Positions 3,895-49,349 of a stretch of DNA of 64,000 bases are shown here, piece by piece. The notes beneath the pieces are model-generated. The model was not told where the DNA came from. It saw only the letters and a program-made list of their open reading frames with translations, and searched no databases. How positions within the stretch are numbered: the first letter of the stretch is position 1; the number at the start of each line of letters is the position of its first letter. Source of the stretch: Candidatus Microgenomates bacterium (GTDB lineage Bacteria > Patescibacteriota > Microgenomatia > JACQLA01); NCBI GenBank assembly GCA_016204255.1, contig JACQLA010000003.1, forward strand, positions 184,088 through 248,087, in the 5' to 3' direction. A program made the translations under genes and the position numbers.

Positions 3895-6426
3895 ATGAGC
3901 GATATTGGAAAAATACAAGCTGCTGAAATCACACAAGAAATGCAACGGTCCTATTTGGACTATGCAATGTCCGTTATTGTTTCTCGGGCCTTACCGGACG
4001 TTCGTGACGGTTTAAAACCCGTCCATCGCCGCATCCTTTATGCCATGCATCAGATGGGGCTTTCACACGCAGCAAAATACACCAAATCGGCTAAAATTGT
4101 CGGTGAGGTTTTAGGTAAGTATCATCCGCATGGCGATATGCCGGTTTATGATGCTTTAGTCCGGCTGGCTCAGGATTTTTCGATGCGCTACGCCTTAGTC
4201 GATGGACAGGGGAACTATGGATCGGTCGACGGCGATCCGCCGGCCGCCATGCGTTACACGGAAGCCCGCCTGACCGCGATTGCCCAGGAAATGCTTCTGG
4301 ATCTGGAAAAAGAAACCGTCGATTTTGTTCCCAATTTTGATTCAACTCTTAAAGAACCTGTCTTTTTGCCGGCCAAACTTCCGAATTTACTGCTTATGGG
4401 TTCGGAAGGTATCGCGGTTGGTATGGCCACCAAAATCCCTCCGCACAATTTAGGTGAGGTGATTGACGCCATTACCTTTATGATTGGGAAAGCCAACAAA
4501 AAAGCGGAAAACAAAATGGCGGATAAGACAGATCAACAAGCAAAAGAGAACAATGAAATTTCGGCTCAGTCATCCCTTAATTTTGATGTCTCGGTTGAAG
4601 ATCTGATGCAGTTTATAAAAGGCCCCGACTTTCCCACGGGAGCGGCAATTTATGACATCTCGGAAATTACCGCCGCCTACGCGACCGGTAAAGGAAAAAT
4701 TATTATGCGGGCCAAGGCCGAAATCGAGGATATCGGTCAGGGAAAATCAGCTATTATCGTTACGGAGTTACCCTATCAAGTCAATAAGGCTCAGCTTGTC
4801 GCCAAAATTGCAGAACTTGCCAAAGATAAAAAAGTTGAGGGTATTTCGGATTTAAGAGACGAATCAGACCGCCACGGAATCCGGGTGGTGGTTGAGTTAA
4901 AACGCGATACCCGACCGCGCACTGTTTTACAAAATCTTTTTAAACACACCGCAATGCAAACAACCTTTCCTGTCAACCTCGTGGCTTTGGTCGAAGGCAC
5001 GCCTCAAACTTTAACCTTGAAAATGGTTCTGGAAAAATATATCGATCACCGCCGCCAGGTGATTGTCAGGCGATCAGAATTTGAGCTAAAAGAGGCAAAA
5101 GCAAGGCTTCACATTCTTGAGGGATTAAAAATTGCGGTCGATCATATTGATGAGGTTATCGAAACTATTAAAAAATCCAAAGACGCCGATGAGGCCAAGG
5201 GAAAACTTATGGAGCGTTTTGGTTTGAGTGTTATTCAAGCCACGGCCATCCTAGATATGCAGCTTCGCCGCCTTGCGGCACTTGAAAGACAAAAAATTGA
5301 AGACGAGTATGAAATGGTCAAAGAGACCATCGCTTATCTTGAAGATTTATTGGCTCATCCGGAGAAAATTTTAGACTTAATAAAAAGCGAGCTTTTGAAA
5401 GTTAGGGAAAAGTATGTAGACGAGAGGAAAACTCGAGTTTATAAATCCAAACCAGGAGAATTTTCTGAAGAAGATTTAATCCCCAAAGAGAATGTGGTAA
5501 TCACTCTTAGTCAATCGGGATATATTAAGCGACAGTCCTTAAATACGTTTAATATCCAACAGCGGGGTGGCAAGGGGGTTATGGGAATGAAAACTAAAGA
5601 AGGGGATGAGATTGATCATATCCTTTCGGCGTCAACCCATGACAATATTTTGTTCTTTACTAATAAAGGTAAAGTCTATCAAATGCGGGTTTGGGACGTC
5701 CCAGAAGGAACAAGAATCTCTAAAGGACAGGCTATTGTTAATATTATAAACATCGAGCAGGGCGAAATGGTTAGCTCCATCTTAACTTATCCCTCAGACA
5801 CAAAAGGGGAGGGGAAATACATTTTTCTGACTACAGAAAAAGGAACGGTTAAGAAAACTGAACTTTCAGAATATACTAATATTCGTAGAACTGGACTTAT
5901 AACGATTAAGCTCGATAAAGATGATGAGCTTTGCTGGACGAAATTAACCTCCGGTAAAGACGACGTAATTCTGGTCACCCACGACGGTAAATCAATTAGA
6001 TTTAATGAGAACCAGGTACGACCGACTAAAAGAGATACGATGGGGGTACGCGGGATTCTCTGTGGTAAAGACGATTATGTAATCGGGATGGACATTGTTA
6101 AATCTGAAAAAGACGAACTTTTGGTTATTATGGAAAAGGGGTTAGGTAAAAAAACTACCCTTTCCGAATTTCCAAAACAAAGCAGAGGAGGCAAAGGCGT
6201 TAAAGCCTGTGAAACCACCCAAAGAACCGGTAAAGTTATCACCTCCCATATTATTGAACCCAATTGTGACTCCATTATTTTAACATCTGTTAACGGTCAG
6301 GTCGTTAAAATGCCCATAAGTTCTGTTCCCAAACTTTCCCGCGCTACCCAAGGCGTGATCCTGATGCGTTTTTCCGATCCGAAGGATTCATTGGCCGCGG
6401 CGACTTGCCTTACAAAAGAAAAGTAG
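3895..6426 (+). CDS. gyrA: DNA gyrase subunit A
   Basis: N-terminal [29 protein letters not shown] (catalytic Tyr region) and a C-terminal beta-pinwheel with repeated GxGKG motifs. 843 aa, with a short Lys/Asn-rich insertion near residue 200. Confidence 0.92.
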
Positions 6427-35704: not shown

Positions 35705-35734
35705 TTGTCAATAAGTGAAAAGTTGTGCTAAAAT
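35705..35734 (+). promoter_or_regulatory. Strong sigma-70-like promoter for tRNA-Leu (TTGTCA-18-tgcTAAAAT)
   Basis: Extended -10 (TGc TAAAAT). Shares the 14-mer tgctaaaatagcct with the promoter at 44492..44519. Confidence 0.5.
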
Positions 35735-35823
35735 AGCCTTACGCCGAAGTGGCGGAATTGACAGACGCGCACGCTCCCTTTTCTAACGAGCAAAGTACAG
35801 AGAAAAAACTAGCGATCTAATTT

Positions 35824-35906
35824 GCCGCGGTGCTGGAATGGTAGACAGGCTGGTCTCAAAAACCAGTGATGGAAACATCGTGAGAGTTCGAGTCTCTCCC
35901 GCGGCA
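35824..35906 (+). tRNA. tRNA-Leu (anticodon CAA), type II with long variable arm, no encoded CCA
   Basis: Acceptor gccgcgg/ccgcggc, anticodon stem ctggt/accag with loop cTCAAaa, variable arm tgatggaaacatcgtga, T arm gagag-ttcgagt-ctctc. Confidence 0.85.
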
Positions 35907-35920
35907 CACTCGGAAAATTT

Positions 35921-40572: not shown

Positions 40573-40636
40573 TCATAATGGTAATTAGTTAGTCCCGACT
40601 TGACAATTTTTAAAAAATCTTTATGATAAGGAAACG

Positions 40637-41059
40637 ATGAAGAAAGAGTCGATTATTGTCGGCATTTTTGGCTTATCCCTTGGCCTTTTAGTTGCCTGGG
40701 GAATTTGGAATTTTAAAAGCGGGCCGACCGAGACCGAAGAAATTCCTACTCCTGAAGTCGCTACCGATATCTCTCCTACTCTGACCCCTCCCACCTCACT
40801 TTTGACGCTTGACTTACCAATTGATGGACAACTTGCCACTTCAAGTTCAATGCTGGTTTCGGGAAAAACAAAAGCGGGCGCAACTGTAGTTATCTCCAGC
40901 CCCGCAGAAGATAAGGCTTTAGTAGTTCCGACCAACGGCGTCTTTTCGCAAGATTTAAAACTTGAAGAAGGAGAAAACACAGTTACAGTAACCGTTTATC
41001 CTCAGGAAGGCCAAAAAGAAGAAACGATTGAAAGAACAGTTATTTACAGCACCGATTAA
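40637..41059 (+). CDS. Secreted/anchored hypothetical protein with Thr/Pro linker and Ig-like beta domain
   Basis: N-terminal TM/signal anchor, a PTPEVATDISPTLTPPT linker and a beta-rich C-terminal domain. Confidence 0.4.
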   Translation: MKKESIIVGIFGLSLGLLVAWGIWNFKSGPTETEEIPTPEVATDISPTLTPPTSLLTLDLPIDGQLATSSSMLVSGKTKAGATVVISSPAEDKALVVPTNGVFSQDLKLEEGENTVTVTVYPQEGQKEETIERTVIYSTD

Positions 41060-42912: not shown

Positions 42913-43782
42913 TTAGCTATTATTCGAGCTAAAAAATAATTTCAGTAGCTCTTGGTCATTCCTTAAGGCCGCGAGCGCTCGATGTTGCAATGCTTTAATC
43001 GCACCTTCACTCTTGCCTAATATCCTACCTATTTCTCCATTTGATAACTCTTCAACAAATCTAAAATAAATAACTTGCGCTTGAGTTGGTAATAATCTCG
43101 ATACTGCTTTTCTCACCATCACTACTCTTTCATCTAATTCTACTTCAGACTCAGGATTACCGAAATGACTTGCAAAATCCATTAAAACTTCGTCTTTAGG
43201 TTTATCTCCCCCATATTGATGATTTCTATGCCTGCTGCTATCTCGATGAAAATTAGCCATTAAATTGTGAGCAATTCTAAAAAGCCAGCTCGAAACGAGC
43301 CCCTCGCCTTTTGGCACAAAATTTCCACAATTCACAAAGGCATTTAAAAATACAGTCTGTGTTAATTCCTCGGTATCTGGGTGGCTTCCGGTACGATAAT
43401 AAAGGTAGCTATAAATTCTATTCACATGTCGTTCATAAATAGTGCCGAATGCTTCATTTTTGCCCTTTTTGGCTCTCTCGATCAACTCTAAATCTGATAT
43501 TTCCGATTCCCGGTTAGGCGTAGGTGGGAGAAATTTGTATATAACTATTCCATTTGATCGTTCGCCTTTATCGGATCGTTTTAACGACGTCTTCCCCACC
43601 CATGGAATGGTGGGATCGGCACTTTCTGATAAAGGGTAAACGCCCTTATCGCCATTATCTAAAGATGTATCCGGAGCTACTGATTCATCATCTTCCGAGA
43701 TGGGGTCGTCCGGCGGCGGGGATAGTGATTTTTCATGGATTATCCAGTGTCCATTTTCTCGGGTTTCTTTTATCGTTCTCAT
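42913..43782 (-). CDS. ECF-type sigma-70 factor with about 95-aa N-terminal extension
   Basis: Region 2 (LIERAKKGKNEAFGTIYERHVNRIYSYLYYRTG, WLFRIAHNLMANF). Region 4 (LPTQAQVIYFRFVEELSNGEIGRILGKSEGAIKALQHRA). Confidence 0.75.
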   Translation of the reverse strand: MRTIKETRENGHWIIHEKSLSPPPDDPISEDDESVAPDTSLDNGDKGVYPLSESADPTIPWVGKTSLKRSDKGERSNGIVIYKFLPPTPNRESEISDLELIERAKKGKNEAFGTIYERHVNRIYSYLYYRTGSHPDTEELTQTVFLNAFVNCGNFVPKGEGLVSSWLFRIAHNLMANFHRDSSRHRNHQYGGDKPKDEVLMDFASHFGNPESEVELDERVVMVRKAVSRLLPTQAQVIYFRFVEELSNGEIGRILGKSEGAIKALQHRALAALRNDQELLKLFFSSNNS

Positions 43783-43801: not shown

Positions 43802-44413
43802 TTGCTGTATCTTATCACATGTCGCCAAAAATTGACAAAAAAACAAGAGATTGATATCGTTTGCTTTAAAGTGTCTTTACAAGAACGCGGTCTCCCTATT
43901 GAGTCTTCAGTAGAAGAAAAAAGAAATATTTCCGGGTATATTAATTTTGTTCGGACACTTTGTTCCTTACATTCGGATGAGGAAATAGTAAGACGATCCT
44001 TATTTAGAAAGCATCTAACCTACAGCCAGCGAAAACGCCACTTACCCAATTTACCTCTTCTACCCGACCCAACTTCTGAGGAAATTCTTACTCAATTTTA
44101 CCGTAAACATCCGCATCATGCTGAAAGAAGAAATCGCCTAGATGAAATTGCTAATGACCCATTTTTAATGGTATCCCTGATGAATACGGTTGATCAGATA
44201 CTCGAAACATTAACTCCTCGACAATGTCTAACTCTTCAACAAATATTTGGTTTAGGTCCTGTGAGCCAAGGTCATACTTTAAAAGAAGTTGGTAATCTAT
44301 TGGGGAAAAGCGTTAATCGTATATGGCAGCTTGGAAATAAGGGAGTGTTGAGATTGCACTCCCATAAGCGCCACCAGCCCGTCATTGAACTTTTGGATGG
44401 CAAAAAAAGTTGA
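43802..44413 (+). CDS. Protein with a C-terminal sigma-70 region-4-type HTH only (no region 2)
   Basis: LTPRQCLTLQQIFGLGPVSQGHTLKEVGNLLGKSVNRIWQLGNKGVLRL resembles RpoD region 4.2. The start is uncertain, with an internal Met at about residue 133. Confidence 0.4.
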   Translation: MLYLITCRQKLTKKQEIDIVCFKVSLQERGLPIESSVEEKRNISGYINFVRTLCSLHSDEEIVRRSLFRKHLTYSQRKRHLPNLPLLPDPTSEEILTQFYRKHPHHAERRNRLDEIANDPFLMVSLMNTVDQILETLTPRQCLTLQQIFGLGPVSQGHTLKEVGNLLGKSVNRIWQLGNKGVLRLHSHKRHQPVIELLDGKKS

Positions 44414-44491
44414 CTACTTCCTGATGATCTTTAGCAAGATTTACCAGAAATAAGGCGCGCAGGCTCCAGATTTTAAGAGTCCGGGTTAAAA

Positions 44492-44519
44492 TTTGACAAA
44501 CAGCAATATTTTGCTAAAA
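44492..44519 (+). promoter_or_regulatory. Strong sigma-70-like promoter (TTGACA-16-tgcTAAAAT), near-identical -10 region to the tRNA-Leu promoter
   Basis: The 14-mer tgctaaaatagcct is shared with 35726..35739. Confidence 0.5.
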
Positions 44520-44525
44520 TAGCCT

Positions 44526-44666
44526 GTATGACAAACTTATCCTTTTCAGTTTGGCATCATCAACCGCAGTAGCTGTTGGTTGGTTTTTGTTGCCTAAAAG
44601 GATAACTCAGATTTAAAACTTTAAAATATTTGTACAACTTAACCAGCCAGCAGGGGCTGGTTTTTT
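44526..44666 (+). ncRNA. Candidate small RNA, leader or attenuator transcript of about 140 nt, ending in an intrinsic terminator just before the hisC-like start
   Basis: Bounded by the promoter at 44492..44519 and the terminator hairpin ccagcc-agcagg-ggctgg+T6 (44643..44666). It contains a 9-bp internal hairpin and a 14-codon mini-ORF, MTNLSFSVWHHQPQ*. Confidence 0.35.
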
Positions 44667-44679
44667 CGTGGGAAAAAAT

Positions 44680-45771
44680 ATGAAATTACCAAAATTATAT
44701 GCACTGGGAAAAAAATTACCGATTGACCTAAGTTTAAGTGAAAATCCACTGGGATGTTCGCCTCGGATTTTTGCGGCTTTAAAAAGTGATTTAAAACTTA
44801 TCACTAATTACCCCGATCCACGTTCTCAAAAACTAAAAACCGCCTTGGCTCAAAACTTTGCCCTTTCCAAAGAAAATATAACTTTTGGCAATGGTTCGGA
44901 AACTCTCATTGATCTGGTTTGTAGAGTTCTTCTCAAACCCGGTGATAATGTTCTCATTCCGGAAGTAACTTTCCCCCTTTTTGAAACAGCAACCATTTTG
45001 GCAGGCGCACAACCAAGTTTCACCAAAATGAATAGAAATCTTGATATCGACTTAAAAATGATGATCGCAAATATCAATAAAAAAACAAAATTAATTTTTC
45101 TTTGTAACCCCAATAATCCTACGGGAAAGATTTTAAAAGATAAGGAAATCATTAACTTTGTCAAAAAAGTTTCGCCTTTATCTATGATAGTTGATGAGGC
45201 CAATATTGAATTTGGCGGGAAATCTGTAGTACCTGCCCTGAATCAATTAAATAACTTAATAGTTTTGCGCACTTTCTCCAAAGCCTTTGGGCTTGCCGGC
45301 CTACGAATCGGTGTTTTAATCGCCAGGGAAAAATTAATAAAGGCGGTTGATCAGATCAGACAGCCATTTCCTCTTAATGCCTTTGCCGAAAACGCAGCGA
45401 TTATAGCCTTAAATGACCAGAAATTTATTAAAAAAAGCCGGCGACTTATGATTCAGGAAAAAGAATTCTTAACTCGGGAATTAAAAAAGCGCGGATTTAC
45501 AGTTTATGATTCACAGGCAAATAATATTTTAGTTAAGGTTAATCGCGTTTCCCCTGTTTCAAAATTATTTATTCAGGCATTGAGTAAAAATGGCGTATCT
45601 GTAGTTAATGGTAGCTTATTCCGTGGCCTAGATGATCGATTCTTTCGTCTCTCCCCCCGCCTACCAAAAACTAACAGAAGATTCTTAAAAATCACCGATA
45701 AAATTTTAGAAGGAGGTGAATTTGTGTGTGTGAAAAGAAGCTCTCATGGCAAGAAATTGCTAATAAAATAA
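44680..45771 (+). CDS. Class-II PLP-dependent aminotransferase, histidinol-phosphate aminotransferase (HisC) family
   Basis: LSENPLGCSP, NYPDP, the FSKAFGLAGLRIG pyridoxal-Lys block. Immediately upstream of hisS. The ORF track begins at the GTG at 44668, but the ATG at 44680 is the likelier start. Confidence 0.7.
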   Translation: MKLPKLYALGKKLPIDLSLSENPLGCSPRIFAALKSDLKLITNYPDPRSQKLKTALAQNFALSKENITFGNGSETLIDLVCRVLLKPGDNVLIPEVTFPLFETATILAGAQPSFTKMNRNLDIDLKMMIANINKKTKLIFLCNPNNPTGKILKDKEIINFVKKVSPLSMIVDEANIEFGGKSVVPALNQLNNLIVLRTFSKAFGLAGLRIGVLIAREKLIKAVDQIRQPFPLNAFAENAAIIALNDQKFIKKSRRLMIQEKEFLTRELKKRGFTVYDSQANNILVKVNRVSPVSKLFIQALSKNGVSVVNGSLFRGLDDRFFRLSPRLPKTNRRFLKITDKILEGGEFVCVKRSSHGKKLLIK

Positions 45772-46004
45772 AATGTCCATTTAGTGCTGAAGAATGCAAG
45801 AGGAATGAAGGTATTAATCAAAAAGAGAAAAGGATCGAAAACGATACCGTATTATACGTGGCAGAATGTAAATACTGTGGCCGAAAAGCCGTCGAATGGG
45901 GTTATGACCAGTTTGCAAGTAGTAATGGCTGGACACCACGTTAAAATTTTGCATTTACCTTGTATTTTGATACTAAAATCTTTATGATTAGAGGAGTAAA
46001 AAAT

Positions 46005-47240
46005 ATGATTGAGCCACGAACACTGAAGGGCTTCCGGGATTTTTTACCTAAGGAAGCCAAAAAAAGGCAGTATGTAATAAACATCTTGAGAAAGGTGTTT
46101 GAATCCTATGGCTTTGAGCCGCTTGAGACGCCGGCGCTTGAATATGAGGATATTCTGCTGGGAAAATATGGCGAAGAAGGCGATAAACTGATGTACCGTT
46201 TCACCGACCGCGGTGGCCGAAAAGTAGCTTTGCGCTACGATCAAACCGTACCCTTGGCACGCGTGGTGGCGCAATATGGCAACCAGTTACCCACTCCATT
46301 TAAGCGCTATCAAATCCAACCGGTTTGGCGGGCCGAAAACCCTCAAAAAGGAAGATTCAGAGAATTTTTGCAGTGTGATATTGACATAGTGGACACCAAC
46401 TCCCCTCTTGCCGATGCCGAAGTCATTGCCTGTGTAGCCAAAGGGTTGGAAAGTTTAGGCTTTAAAAATTTTAAGATTCTAATCAATGATAGATTTATAT
46501 TTAACAGCGGAGAATTCCTCACTCTTGGAGAAAGTGAATTAGGTCCTTTCATGAGGTCATTAGATAAAATAAAAAAAATAGGCGCTGACCAAGCCTTAGA
46601 GGAAATGGTTAGTTTTAATATTCCTAGAGAACAAGCAGAAAAAATTATTAATTCTGTGGAAAATCAAAAAATAACCCCAAATCTTCAAAAAATAATGGAC
46701 TTATTAAATAAGTACAACATAACAAATATCGAATTCGACCCCATGCTTGTAAGAGGACTCGATTATTACACAGGTCTGATCTTTGAGGTGGTAATTCCCG
46801 AGTATGGAGAAGATAAATCTATTGGTGGTGGTGGTAGATATGACAGTCTAATTGGTATGTTTGCCGGAAAACAGATCTCGGCCGTTGGATTTGCCTTTGG
46901 CTTTGACAGGATCATTGAGTCCATGGACCAGCTGAACTTATTTCCCAAAGATCTAATTACTACCAAAGTTTTGGTAACGATATTCTCCCAAGATTTGGCA
47001 GAAAAATCTCTGGCTATAACCGAAAAGCTGCGTTCCCAAGGTATAAACACCGACCTTTGGCCAGATCCTGAAAGTAAACTCGAAAAACAGTTAAAATATG
47101 CTGATCAAAAAGGAATCCCTTTTGTGGTTATCGCCGGTCCGGATGAAATTAGCCAGAATAAAATAACAATCAAAGATATGTCACAGAAGACCCAAAAAAC
47201 GGTTTCTGTCGACGACCTGCCCGATGCCTTCAAATTCTAA
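46005..47240 (+). CDS. hisS: Histidyl-tRNA synthetase
   Basis: MIEPRTLKGFRDFLP start with GGAGG RBS. Class II motifs and a C-terminal anticodon-binding domain. The ORF track's earlier ATG at 45960 is probably not used. Confidence 0.9.
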   Translation: MIEPRTLKGFRDFLPKEAKKRQYVINILRKVFESYGFEPLETPALEYEDILLGKYGEEGDKLMYRFTDRGGRKVALRYDQTVPLARVVAQYGNQLPTPFKRYQIQPVWRAENPQKGRFREFLQCDIDIVDTNSPLADAEVIACVAKGLESLGFKNFKILINDRFIFNSGEFLTLGESELGPFMRSLDKIKKIGADQALEEMVSFNIPREQAEKIINSVENQKITPNLQKIMDLLNKYNITNIEFDPMLVRGLDYYTGLIFEVVIPEYGEDKSIGGGGRYDSLIGMFAGKQISAVGFAFGFDRIIESMDQLNLFPKDLITTKVLVTIFSQDLAEKSLAITEKLRSQGINTDLWPDPESKLEKQLKYADQKGIPFVVIAGPDEISQNKITIKDMSQKTQKTVSVDDLPDAFKF

Positions 47241-48135
47241 AAAAAGAGCAATTATTGCCTTAGTGATTGCTGCCCTGATCTGGGGCGCGGCTGTTCCAAT
47301 TTTTAAATGGTCGCTTGGCAATATTCCCCCATTTTCTTTAGCTTTTTTGCGATTTTTTCTGGCTGCCTTTTTAATTTTTCCCCTGGCCAAAAACCATCTT
47401 AAAATCTCTAGTAAAGATATCGATCGTATTGTGCTGATAAGTCTTTTAGGAATCACCTTAAATATTTCTTTTTTCTTCCAGGCACTAAGATATACCACCG
47501 CTTTAAACGCCGCCGTTCTTTTAACCACCGCCCCCATCCTTACCCTTTTTACCGCTCATATTTTTTTGAAAGAGAGGTTGAGACCAATTTTAATCCTGAG
47601 CTTATCTCTGGCAGTTTTAGGAATGATTGTTTTAATTATCAATCCCATTCGCGAAAACGGCATTGACTCCCATCTTCTGGGTAACTTCTTAATGCTTTTA
47701 GCAGTTTTATCCTGGGTGGGCTACGAAATTACCGCTAAAAAACTTTTCGTCTCGTATCCGGCCATTACCATCGTTTTTTATTCATTCTTAATTGGCGCTT
47801 TTTCTTTTTTCCCCGGATTTTACGCGGAGTACATCATGTCTCCCGAGTGGGTTTTAGATTTAGATATTAAGGGTATCGTCGGTATTGCCTATGGCGCATT
47901 TTTTTCCTCAACCATAGCTTATCTTGCCTGGGATTTCGGCCTTTCCAAACTGCCGGCATCAGAAGTTAGCCTCTTCAGCTCGTTACAACCCCTAGCTGCG
48001 GCAGTTATCGCCTTGCCCCTTCTTGGTGAGAAAATCACCTTTCCCTTTCTGATCGGTGCCTTTCTTATCCTGACCGGAGTCTTTTTGTTGGAGAAAAAAC
48101 GCCTCTTGACCCATTCTCGCCTTCAAAACAGTTGA
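47224..48135 (+). CDS. EamA/DMT-superfamily transporter
   Basis: Ten TM helices in two EamA repeats. 303 aa. Confidence 0.75.
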   Translation: MPSNSKKRAIIALVIAALIWGAAVPIFKWSLGNIPPFSLAFLRFFLAAFLIFPLAKNHLKISSKDIDRIVLISLLGITLNISFFFQALRYTTALNAAVLLTTAPILTLFTAHIFLKERLRPILILSLSLAVLGMIVLIINPIRENGIDSHLLGNFLMLLAVLSWVGYEITAKKLFVSYPAITIVFYSFLIGAFSFFPGFYAEYIMSPEWVLDLDIKGIVGIAYGAFFSSTIAYLAWDFGLSKLPASEVSLFSSLQPLAAAVIALPLLGEKITFPFLIGAFLILTGVFLLEKKRLLTHSRLQNS

Positions 48136-49349
48136 CTTCAGCAAGTCAGAAAAGTAAAATATCCTATAAAAATTGTGCGATGAGAAAAGAACAAGTTCTA
48201 GCATACAAACCAAATAAACGATTTAATCCTGTATTTCAGTCCGCAGAAGACCCAAGAGTTGCCTTTGTCGACAAAAATACGGGAGCATCATACAGAAGCG
48301 TACGAAAGGAATTGCTTACTAGAGAGCAGGAAATAGAAATTGCGCAAAATATTGAACGCGGTATTGTTGCCTACCACCTCCTAAGAAAACACGACCCGAT
48401 AAATATTAATCAATCAATAGAAGGAGTGATTCTGGATCGTGTAGCCGCAGAAAGTGAGGATACAAAAACTCCCGAATTTAGAAATAAAGTTGATGGGAAT
48501 CTTTCAGATCTGCGGAAAAATTTAGTCATCGAAGACCTTTTCCCAGAGATCAATGAGAATGAGCTTTCTGAAAAGGATTTAGAAGAATTAAAAAAAATGG
48601 TCGCTAGAGCTAAAGAATCCCGCGATCAGGCAGTCGAACATAATCATGGACTGGTTGTGGAAACCGCTAAATTTTATTATAGAAAAAAAGGTTCTTTAAC
48701 AATGGATGACCTCATCCAGATAGGTAAACTTGGATTTTTAAAAGGTCTGGCAAGATTTGATTGGCGCTCAGGCAATAAATTTTCAACCTACATTCCTCAC
48801 TGGGTAAAACATATGATTACTGAAGCAATAGGTAAAGATGGCTCAATAATTGCTCTGCCGAGTCATCGCATAGACTGGGAAAGGGTATATGAAAAGGCCT
48901 ACGATTTCCTTCTCGACAAAATGGGACAACCTCCTACTGATAGCGAAACTGCTCAATTTCTAGAGTGGCCACTCTCAAGAATCGAGTTAATAAAAAGCGC
49001 GCCAAAAGCGAATATTTCATTGGAGGCACCCAAATACGTAAAGGGCAAAGAACCGGTTGCAATTGGAAGCATGATCGAAGACCCAAACGACAACGATAAT
49101 CCTATATTATATGCGAATCATGCAGGTTTAGTTAGAGATTTAGAAATAGCTTTAAAATCTTTAAACCCAAGATGGAGAAAGATTTTAATGATGCGCAGTG
49201 GCATCGGCTACGATCACGAATATACTCTTGAAGAGGTTGGTAAAGAATTCGGTGTTACTCGCGAACGTATTCGTCAAATTGAAGCCCAAGCTCAGGAAAA
49301 AATATCCAAGAAATTTTCCCATTTACAGAATCATCTCTGGAACGATTAA
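48132..49349 (+). CDS. RpoD-like sigma-70 factor, paralogue 1 (alternative start ATG 48180)
   Basis: Region 2 (HNHGLVVETAKFYY..DLIQIGKLGFLKGLARFDWRSGNKFSTYIPHWVKHMI). Region 4 (YTLEEVGKEFGVTRERIRQIEAQA). Confidence 0.75.
   Translation: MTSASQKSKISYKNCAMRKEQVLAYKPNKRFNPVFQSAEDPRVAFVDKNTGASYRSVRKELLTREQEIEIAQNIERGIVAYHLLRKHDPININQSIEGVILDRVAAESEDTKTPEFRNKVDGNLSDLRKNLVIEDLFPEINENELSEKDLEELKKMVARAKESRDQAVEHNHGLVVETAKFYYRKKGSLTMDDLIQIGKLGFLKGLARFDWRSGNKFSTYIPHWVKHMITEAIGKDGSIIALPSHRIDWERVYEKAYDFLLDKMGQPPTDSETAQFLEWPLSRIELIKSAPKANISLEAPKYVKGKEPVAIGSMIEDPNDNDNPILYANHAGLVRDLEIALKSLNPRWRKILMMRSGIGYDHEYTLEEVGKEFGVTRERIRQIEAQAQEKISKKFSHLQNHLWND

Follow-up and report, generated by a model that had tools for sequence, protein, structure and literature searches.

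In the genome of a Candidatus Microgenomates bacterium, a stretch of 64,000 nucleotides (nt; contig JACQLA010000003.1, positions 184,088 to 248,087, here called the window) contains, directly upstream of a gene for a HisC-like aminotransferase and of the histidyl-tRNA synthetase gene hisS, a strong promoter that is followed after about 140 nt by an intrinsic terminator. The question raised by this locus is what such a short, terminator-ended transcript does in front of these genes. A preliminary description, made from the letters of the sequence, had proposed either a ribosome-mediated attenuator responding to the charging of His-tRNA or a stable small RNA (sRNA). The analysis reported here, all of which is computational, indicates with a probability of roughly 80% that the element is a ribosome-mediated transcription attenuator of the trp/his leader type, controlling an operon made up of the aminotransferase gene, a small open reading frame (ORF), hisS and eamA. 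All the elements that had been described (promoter, mini-ORF, hairpin, and terminator 13 nt before the ATG of the aminotransferase gene) are present in the sequence, and the leader can be divided as follows:

44493–44498, forward strand: −35 hexamer TTGACA, with a 16-nt spacer to the −10 box.
44512–44520, forward strand: extended −10 box TGcTAAAAT, inside a 14-mer common to a tRNA-Leu promoter.
44528–44572, forward strand: putative leader ORF (mini-ORF) MTNLSFSVWHHQPQ, 14 codons plus a UAG stop at 44570–44572, its ATG 7 nt after the −10 box.
44537–44546, forward strand: 5' strand of the P0 outer stem, UUAUCCUUUU (leader codons 4–7), predicted to pair with 44596–44605.
44552–44560, forward strand: candidate regulatory codons UGG CAU CAU (Trp-His-His), the Trp being invariant in 43/43 leaders.
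44559–44569, forward strand: region 1, AUCAACCGCAG, overlapping the His-Gln-Pro-Gln codons and paired with 44573–44584 in the minimum free energy (MFE) fold.
44573–44588, forward strand: region 2, CUGUUGGUUGGU, then a U-run, giving the 1:2 hairpin plus U5.
44577–44585, forward strand: antiterminator 5' strand, within region 2, predicted to pair with 44641–44649 (terminator 5' arm).
44596–44605, forward strand: 3' strand of the P0 outer stem, AAAAGGAUAA, in the MFE fold.
44641–44666, forward strand: intrinsic terminator, regions 3 and 4, AACCAGCC-agcagg-GGCUGGUU with a T6 run.
44670–44673, forward strand: probable Shine-Dalgarno sequence GGGA of the aminotransferase gene, read from the sequence and lying outside the terminator stem.

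The terminator hairpin (AACCAGCC-agcagg-GGCTGGTT) occupies 44641–44662, and as its T6 run, which extends to 44666, ends only 13 nt before the aminotransferase ATG at 44680, every transcript entering the gene must traverse the terminator. Taken singly, neither promoter-like matches (24 in the window versus 22.3 in shuffles) nor terminator-like matches (14 versus 10.4) are enriched. When the combination of a −10 box, an ATG 5–12 nt later, an ORF of 8–40 codons and a terminator within 200 nt was searched for on both strands of the window, this leader was the one occurrence, and the same scan of 440 kb of related loci returned only homologous leaders and one spurious overlap. The rarity lies in the combination of elements and not in the single promoter-like or terminator-like matches. 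An unfiltered covariance-model search of the whole window gave no second copy of the leader, and the transcript as a whole folds only modestly better than shuffled sequences (z = −2.1); the weight of evidence for the leader is comparative.

Relatives were gathered by exact protein look-ups and by a metagenome scan with an alignment of N-terminal aminotransferase fragments. A profile scan of genome contigs with a full-length aminotransferase alignment was swamped by the generic CNPNNPTG motif, gave among the matches listed only distant HisC proteins of other phyla and contributed nothing on the leader. In total, 43 distinct leaders were compared, that of the window and 42 from Microgenomates genomes and metagenomes, each located directly upstream of an orthologous aminotransferase gene; in four further assemblies of the same strain the leader is identical. 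A protein recorded for a Candidatus Microgenomates bacterium is identical to the window aminotransferase. The aminotransferases of the 42 relatives are about 40–64% identical to that of the window over the parts compared, and its closest other homologues (57–64%) belong to Daviesbacteria, Beckwithbacteria and other Microgenomates. The 42 relatives share the layout of −10 box, mini-ORF, 1:2 hairpin with U-run, and terminator with a 5' arm complementary to region 2. The inspection of orthologous leaders that the preliminary description had proposed therefore bears out the conservation of mini-ORF, alternative antiterminator pairing and terminator. In the more distant loci of the same metagenome scan (L144 onwards), no terminator was found upstream of the gene.

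The promoter of the window leader scores 11/12 and is the sole 11/12 site with a TG extension in 40–50 kb. It had been regarded as a strong promoter of the tRNA type, and the 14-mer TGCTAAAATAGCCT on which this view was based does occur exactly twice in the window, at 44512 and at 35726, the latter copy 82 nt before tRNA-Leu(CAA) (35824–35907). However, the discriminator sequence differs among the relatives and for this reason the 14-mer is not kept in them; the conserved feature is an extended −10 box 6–12 nt before the ATG. A −10 hexamer matching at 5 or all 6 positions stands 4–12 nt (mostly 6–12) before the start of the mini-ORF in 39/45 leaders examined, with a TG extension in 29 of these 39, and in the remaining 6 a contig end cuts the promoter or the −10 box is weaker. 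Because this spacing leaves no room for a Shine-Dalgarno sequence, the mini-ORF would be leaderless or nearly so, and the position of the −10 box implies a transcript starting at or next to its AUG, an arrangement that is not in the preliminary description.

At 40600–40637, another 11/12 promoter (TTGACA-16-TATGAT) ends 9 nt before the ATG of an ORF of 140 amino acids (aa; 40637–41059), and this promoter-abutting ATG suggests that leaderless mRNAs are perhaps common in this genome. Behind the tRNA-Leu promoter (−10 box at 35729–35734), the start of the transcript (35743–35775) reads GCCGAAGTGGCGGAATTGACAGACGCGCACGC, which resembles the 5' half of a class II tRNA (acceptor and D arm) about 50 nt before tRNA-Leu(CAA); ARAGORN with introns allowed and an Rfam scan by E-value of this region returned one tRNA only, and the sequence is perhaps what remains of a tRNA within the precursor leader. 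In the Daviesbacteria-type clade, a conserved motif like AACCGATAGTAA (core CCGATAG) is found near the leader promoter (L086 at about 2811–2822, L088, L089, L091 and L095) at variable distance from the −10 box; it is absent from the window and could be a transcription-factor site.

Examples of the predicted leader peptides of relatives are MEKSFTINAWYHYASYLGGVIFSG, MKKLNLTKNIWYHHTSLSGGVVFDA, MITKITNAYYWHYTSLREVGNFVV, MLVVNAYHHAWYYALKGGVCF and MKTSVKSVASHYWTS. A Trp codon is present in 43/43 leaders, followed by His or Tyr at W+1 in 98% and at W+2 in 91%, and the two residues preceding Trp are frequently Tyr. The order around Trp varies (WHH, WYHY, HYW, YYWHY, YHHAWYY, HYVWY), and the distance from Trp to the stop ranges from 3 to more than 15 codons. 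The window leader and that of L091 contain no Tyr, and the L128 leader (YYTAWYY) contains no His codon. As L128 lacks His, and as Trp is invariant and accompanied by His and/or Tyr, a pure His-tRNA sensor is not what is conserved; the sensed codons are, as judged from the sequences, Trp plus His/Tyr and not His alone. Of the earlier proposal, the attenuator with its mini-ORF, antiterminator and terminator is retained, whereas the restriction to His is not.

In a frame test, the ATG was set by its distance from the promoter alone and the motif was defined as the nucleotides TGG flanked by YAY alone. ATG and TGG/YAY proved to be in frame, with no in-frame stop between them, in 38/38 relatives, over five different ATG-to-motif spacings (24, 27, 30, 33 and 39 nt). 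Such agreement is hard to account for unless the mini-ORF is read, and by this sequence criterion it looks coding. The RNA context around the regulatory codons differs between clades. We infer from these comparisons that the mini-ORF is translated and which amino acids are sensed.

In the MFE fold of the window leader, a three-tier hairpin, whose 5' strand lies wholly within the mini-ORF, is followed by the terminator. The P0 outer stem is also predicted, with other sequences, in the closest leader clade (L105, L111, L129). The middle tier, a weak helix, takes in UGGCA from the Trp and His codons, and the 1:2 hairpin consists of 11 pairs with one bulge, carries the UAG stop in its loop and has U5 behind region 2. 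Most relatives likewise show a U-run behind region 2, and hairpin and U5 together may form a pause site. The best antiterminator duplex of the window has an energy of −10.8 kcal/mol (z = −2.7).

Across the family, the terminators fall into four classes (5' arm/3' arm) CCAGCC/GGCUGG, CCGCC/GGCGG, CCUCCC/GGGAGG and CCCGC/GCGGG; the stem sequences are wholly replaced between clades, region 2 changes in step and complementarity is retained. RNAalifold on a MAFFT alignment recovered the terminator only. In the covariance-model alignment (model R1; alignment A5, 49 hits), pairing in the core helix of the terminator reaches 98%, with compensatory changes in 5/6 pairs, and the terminator-state structure (1:2 helices plus terminator) gives a covariation of 0.334 versus 0.179 in shuffles (0/500), with its peak at slide 0. 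In the case of the antiterminator, the pairing register shifts by 1–2 nt between clades and therefore alignment-free duplex tests were used for the 2:3 pairing. In 42/42 leaders, the stretch that best complements the terminator 5' arm begins at a distance of 12–30 nt behind the Trp codon (median z = −3.9). Each arm paired more strongly with its own upstream region than with the upstream regions of leaders that have a different arm (−13.9 versus −9.9 kcal/mol, Wilcoxon p = 1.8e-8), with a clear block structure across the four terminator classes.

A natural rearrangement of the leader is seen in L140, where, by comparison with its close relative L139 (2825–2950), the leader is split (320–433 and about 2900–2960) by an insertion of about 2.5 kb. 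The insertion sits exactly in the terminator loop and carries three reverse-strand ORFs (603–2462), and its right end provides a new 5' arm that restores a hairpin before the T-run.

The effect of a ribosome on this RNA was simulated by constrained folding, in which the leader was kept unpaired from its 5' end to a point 12 nt beyond the A-site codon. With the ribosome at the stop codon, the probability of the terminator was at least 0.9 in 43/43 leaders, and with the ribosome on one of the Trp, His or Tyr codons it was below 0.5 in 41/43. The window leader gives 0.96 without a ribosome, 0.00 at each of the W, H and H codons, and 0.96 at the stop. Across the family, the flip from antitermination to termination occurs at W+3, directly behind the aromatic/His cluster. 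These model calculations are a consistency check and not a proof. Together with the foregoing comparisons, they establish the anatomy of the leader, its conservation and covariation, the conservation of its reading frame and its thermodynamic consistency with a switch.

The mechanism proposed for the window leader would operate as follows. Transcription would start about 7 nt after the extended −10 box, at or next to the AUG of the leaderless 14-codon ORF, and RNA polymerase would transcribe the 1:2 hairpin (44559–44569 with 44573–44584) and the U-run, where a presumed pause would let the ribosome catch up. When charged tRNA-Trp and tRNA-His (in most relatives tRNA-Tyr too) are plentiful, the ribosome would reach the UAG in the hairpin loop and cover region 2; in most relatives it would translate straight through region 2. 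With region 2 covered, regions 3 and 4 would form the terminator (44641–44666), giving a transcript of about 140 nt. A ribosome stalled on UGG-CAU-CAU would cover region 1 and the outer stems and leave region 2 free, and the free region 2 (44577–44585) would then pair with the terminator 5' arm (44641–44649), so that no terminator forms and the operon is transcribed. If there is no translation, the 1:2 hairpin and the P0 outer stem would form and transcription would terminate.

Several points weigh against this reading. The window leader has two His codons and one Trp codon, compared with seven His codons in the enterobacterial his leader. Within the clade of the window there is weak pairing between a downstream U(G/U)(U/C)C and UGGCA from the Trp and His codons, and therefore part of the codon conservation could be at the RNA level. 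The fixed-column test of the antiterminator is weak, because of the shifting register: the paired cells amount to 65%, the score was reached by 10/500 shuffles and a slide of +1 does equally well. The support for the 2:3 pairing comes from the alignment-free tests, and the sequences tested there are phylogenetically related. In 14/43 leaders, the probability of the terminator is below 0.5 even without a ribosome, and the folding simulation is an equilibrium model that ignores kinetics. Finally, Trp and Tyr codons before a gene that scores as hisC are unaccounted for unless the enzyme handles aromatic substrates too.

Other explanations of the locus have to be set against the same data. It is improbable that the terminated RNA of about 140 nt is primarily a trans-acting sRNA or a dual-function RNA, with its site before the aminotransferase gene being secondary. 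A strong promoter, a clean terminator and a structured body would suit such an RNA, and rnTrpL of Sinorhizobium is a precedent for an sRNA derived from an attenuator (PMC6614838). However, the element is located in cis, directly upstream of one gene family, in all 43 cases, its reading frame is conserved, and expression of the gene requires read-through, as the terminator ends 13 nt from its ATG. Moreover, no conserved single-stranded seed is visible among the leaders, since the stems change completely between clades. A stable sRNA as primary function, the second proposal of the preliminary description, is thus unsupported, the element being always in cis to the same gene; a secondary role in trans of the terminated RNA may exist and is not needed by the data.

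The mini-ORF might instead encode a nascent-peptide arrest sensor similar to TnaC, in which the sequence W-[H/Y]-[H/Y] would arrest the ribosome according to a free ligand and not to tRNA charging, and would operate the same downstream antitermination switch. TnaC has an essential Trp, and an invariant Trp in a short conserved motif with only 1–2 codons of each kind would agree with this possibility. It is nevertheless unlikely to apply here, because the order and composition of the residues around Trp vary, as would be expected of a set of codons more than of a fixed arrest peptide, and because the distance between Trp and stop changes from 3 to more than 15 codons. In addition, a sister leader with tandem Trp codons before trpB2-trpS, described below, has the classical signature of a starvation sensor.

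Even less probable is a leader that binds a protein or a ligand (autoregulation by HisRS, a TRAP-like protein or a riboswitch) and whose ORF is incidental. Operons for aminoacyl-tRNA synthetases are often under control by RNA binding, as in T-boxes or the ThrRS operator, and the RNA structure of the leader is conserved and covaries. Such a non-coding model leaves the 38/38 conservation of frame and the promoter-abutting ATG unaccounted for; furthermore, the stem sequences are freely replaced and no conserved core like a ligand pocket was seen, most loci with the leader have no hisS in the operon, and no T-box or riboswitch match was obtained (E ≤ 10 at the leader, gathering threshold in 20 related loci). 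A chance arrangement, in which a short random ORF happens to lie next to sequences that resemble a promoter and a terminator and regulate nothing, could draw on the fact that the single matches are as frequent as in shuffles; it is effectively refuted by the comparative data, as the combination occurs once in the window and is conserved with covariation in 42 relatives. Sensing of queuosine through the NAY codons of the His/Tyr/Asn-rich stretch was also considered and was dropped, as no supporting link was found.

The operon that would be controlled by the attenuator consists of the following genes, with no terminator found between the aminotransferase gene, hisS and the EamA gene:

44680–45771, forward strand: HisC-family (subfamily I-beta) class I/II aminotransferase, the conserved, presumably regulated gene.
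45726–45944, forward strand: small ORF of 72 aa with four Cys, overlapping the end of the aminotransferase gene and preceding hisS.
46005–47240, forward strand: hisS, histidyl-tRNA synthetase (TIGR00442, 420.6 bits).
47224–48135, forward strand: EamA/DMT transporter, the last gene of the apparent operon.

The annotation of the downstream genes in the preliminary description is confirmed for hisS by this score and for the aminotransferase by TIGR01141, whose hisC cut-off it passes (292.8 versus 276.55 bits). A correction is called for on the conserved target. The aminotransferase gene follows the leader in 44/44 loci compared, and in only 14 of the 44 (window included; the window's clade and two others) is there also hisS or a hisS-like gene of shorter length behind it; therefore the aminotransferase and not hisS is the conserved target. 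The shorter hisS-like gene lacks the anticodon-binding domain, is hisZ-like and adjoins hisG in L089. At the position equivalent to the Shine-Dalgarno sequence of the aminotransferase gene, relatives have a GTGG/GGAG-like motif. The 72-aa ORF (CPFSAEEC...CKYCG) is zinc-ribbon-like, is preceded by a strong Shine-Dalgarno sequence (AGGAGGTGA) and had no match in NCBIfam; a similar ORF of 66 aa was called at the equivalent place in L085. The EamA/DMT transporter, also found behind hisS in L086, L088, L135, L136 and L138, is weakly similar to the aromatic exporter YddG.

Subfamily I-beta holds both histidinol-phosphate and aromatic aminotransferases (PMC4703992). Compared with solved structures, the window aminotransferase scores almost alike against histidinol-phosphate aminotransferases (144.6 bits) and the aromatic aminotransferase of M. 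tuberculosis (141.1 bits), and its pocket residues are mixed (positions according to PMC4703992): F98-x-L100 resembles F110-x-L112 of the aromatic enzyme, and E74 is polar, like the D/N of histidinol-phosphate enzymes. The His codons of the leader match the hisC/hisS pathway. A broad aromatic/His aminotransferase would be a reasonable inference.

As an observation on the neighborhood, three genes of the sigma-70 family within 7 kb flank the operon (42913–43782, reverse strand; 43802–44413, forward strand; 48132–49349, forward strand), and the sigma-70-family gene of 203 aa has a match to region 4 only.

The covariance model also picked up further leader copies. In L122, a second and nearly identical W-H-Y leader (5438–5567) is located 2.6 kb downstream of the first one, directly before a gene for a HAD-IA hydrolase, which suggests a small regulon. 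A weaker match in L127 (1151–1267) has a terminator of its own and the mini-ORF MEMMIFRNNWWQKVYPRSGWCF, whose Trp codons are in tandem (NNWW), and stands directly before a gene for a TrpB2-type tryptophan synthase beta-like protein (NF009057, 690 bits). Its closest TrpB2 relative, in L177, is preceded at about 1270–1385 by MEIMIFENNWWRKVYPRSEWRF, with covarying stems and its own terminator, and here trpB2 is followed by trpS (TIGR00233, 300.9 bits). Both WW leaders show the same simulated ribosome switch. A TrpR/YerC-like gene adjoins trpB2 in several loci, other Microgenomates lineages have different arrangements upstream of trpB2, and in L179 and L182 a mini-ORF (..YFYLKWR..) precedes trpB2 with no obvious terminator. 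As WW leaders precede trpB2 or trpB2-trpS and W+H/Y leaders precede the hisC-like gene, the leader codons in this lineage follow the downstream pathway. The pairing of an enzyme with the cognate synthetase recurs in trpB2-trpS and in hisC-like-hisS.

From these copies a wider reading can be sketched, which we consider possible and put forward tentatively, with the balance somewhat against it. Microgenomates might possess a small "ribulon" of leaderless, codon-matched attenuators in front of operons in which the gene of an amino-acid enzyme is joined to that of the cognate aminoacyl-tRNA synthetase, and the leader codons might report the physiological role of the enzyme; in that case the "HisC" of these reduced genomes would be an aminotransferase of broad aromatic/histidine (Trp/Tyr/His) specificity, and poor charging of any one of the three tRNAs would induce it. 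The members of such a ribulon would be the WW leader before trpB2-trpS and the W+H/Y leader before the hisC-like gene (with or without hisS and EamA) and before the HAD phosphatase gene.

Among known systems, the classical attenuators of E. coli and Salmonella (trpL, hisL, pheL, thrL, ilvL; pheST) are the obvious term of comparison. Like these, the Microgenomates leader has a short upstream ORF with codons for the presumably sensed amino acids, a 1:2 hairpin, a 2:3 antiterminator and a 3:4 intrinsic terminator, and a stop codon placed so that the terminating ribosome would block region 2. Leaders of mixed specificity are known, as thr senses Thr and Ile and ilv senses Ile, Leu and Val, and pheST is an operon for an aminoacyl-tRNA synthetase under leader-peptide attenuation. 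However, there is no sequence homology to the classical leaders, the ORF is predicted to be leaderless whereas theirs is preceded by a Shine-Dalgarno sequence, the regulatory set is Trp plus His/Tyr with just 3–6 codons, there is an additional stem outside the 1:2 hairpin, the ORF runs through region 2 in most relatives, and the host is a bacterium of the Microgenomates within the Candidate Phyla Radiation (CPR).

The Rfam scan that had been proposed for the leader was carried out with Rfam 15 on the whole window at gathering threshold, on 44380–44720 at E ≤ 10 and on 20 related loci at gathering threshold, and returned no matching family; His_leader (RF00514) gave no match in any of these scans. 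sRNA-like matches to rseX and CyaR were rejected as chance matches driven by the terminator. T-box leaders of hisS and other synthetase genes in Firmicutes follow the same tRNA-charging logic and precede the same kind of target operon, but the T-box (RF00230) gave no match at E ≤ 10 on 44380–44720, and the Microgenomates leader differs in lacking T-box sequence and structure, in being too short at about 140 nt and in having a conserved ORF that is predicted to be translated.

Outside the Proteobacteria, histidine leader peptides have been predicted upstream of a hisS paralogue and of hisZ in Bacillus (Naville & Gautheret 2010, PMC2965389), so that in both cases leader-peptide attenuators are predicted before hisS-family genes. 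The Bacillus ORFs contain a stretch of His codons and lie directly before hisS* or hisZ, whereas the window leader has two His codons and Trp, with the aminotransferase gene coming first. In mycobacteria, leaderless polycysteine short ORFs form a "Cys ribulon" (Canestrari et al., bioRxiv 10.1101/834739). There, as predicted here, the operon opens with a leaderless short ORF that acts as a sensor and codon-specific stalling of the ribosome remodels the downstream RNA, and several loci in one lineage share the same design. The codon sets differ, and in mycobacteria the output is translational, through sequestration of the ribosome-binding site, whereas the Microgenomates leader has an intrinsic terminator 13 nt before the gene; as the probable Shine-Dalgarno sequence (44670–44673) lies outside the terminator stem, the output element here would be the terminator.

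In the literature, no report was found that joins Patescibacteria/CPR with leader-peptide attenuation, and as far as found this would be the first family of ribosome-mediated attenuators described in the CPR. The mechanism itself is the textbook one, so the advance concerns distribution and annotation and not principle. Its presence would imply that transcription and translation are coupled and that initiation on leaderless mRNAs takes place in these organisms. The combination of −10 box, abutting ATG, short ORF and terminator provides a computable signature by which further switches may be sought. The codon content of such leaders would give a separate line of evidence on what CPR enzymes of poorly understood function do, and in the present case the leader codons suggest that the HisC-like aminotransferase is tied to the supply of Trp and Tyr as well as to that of His.

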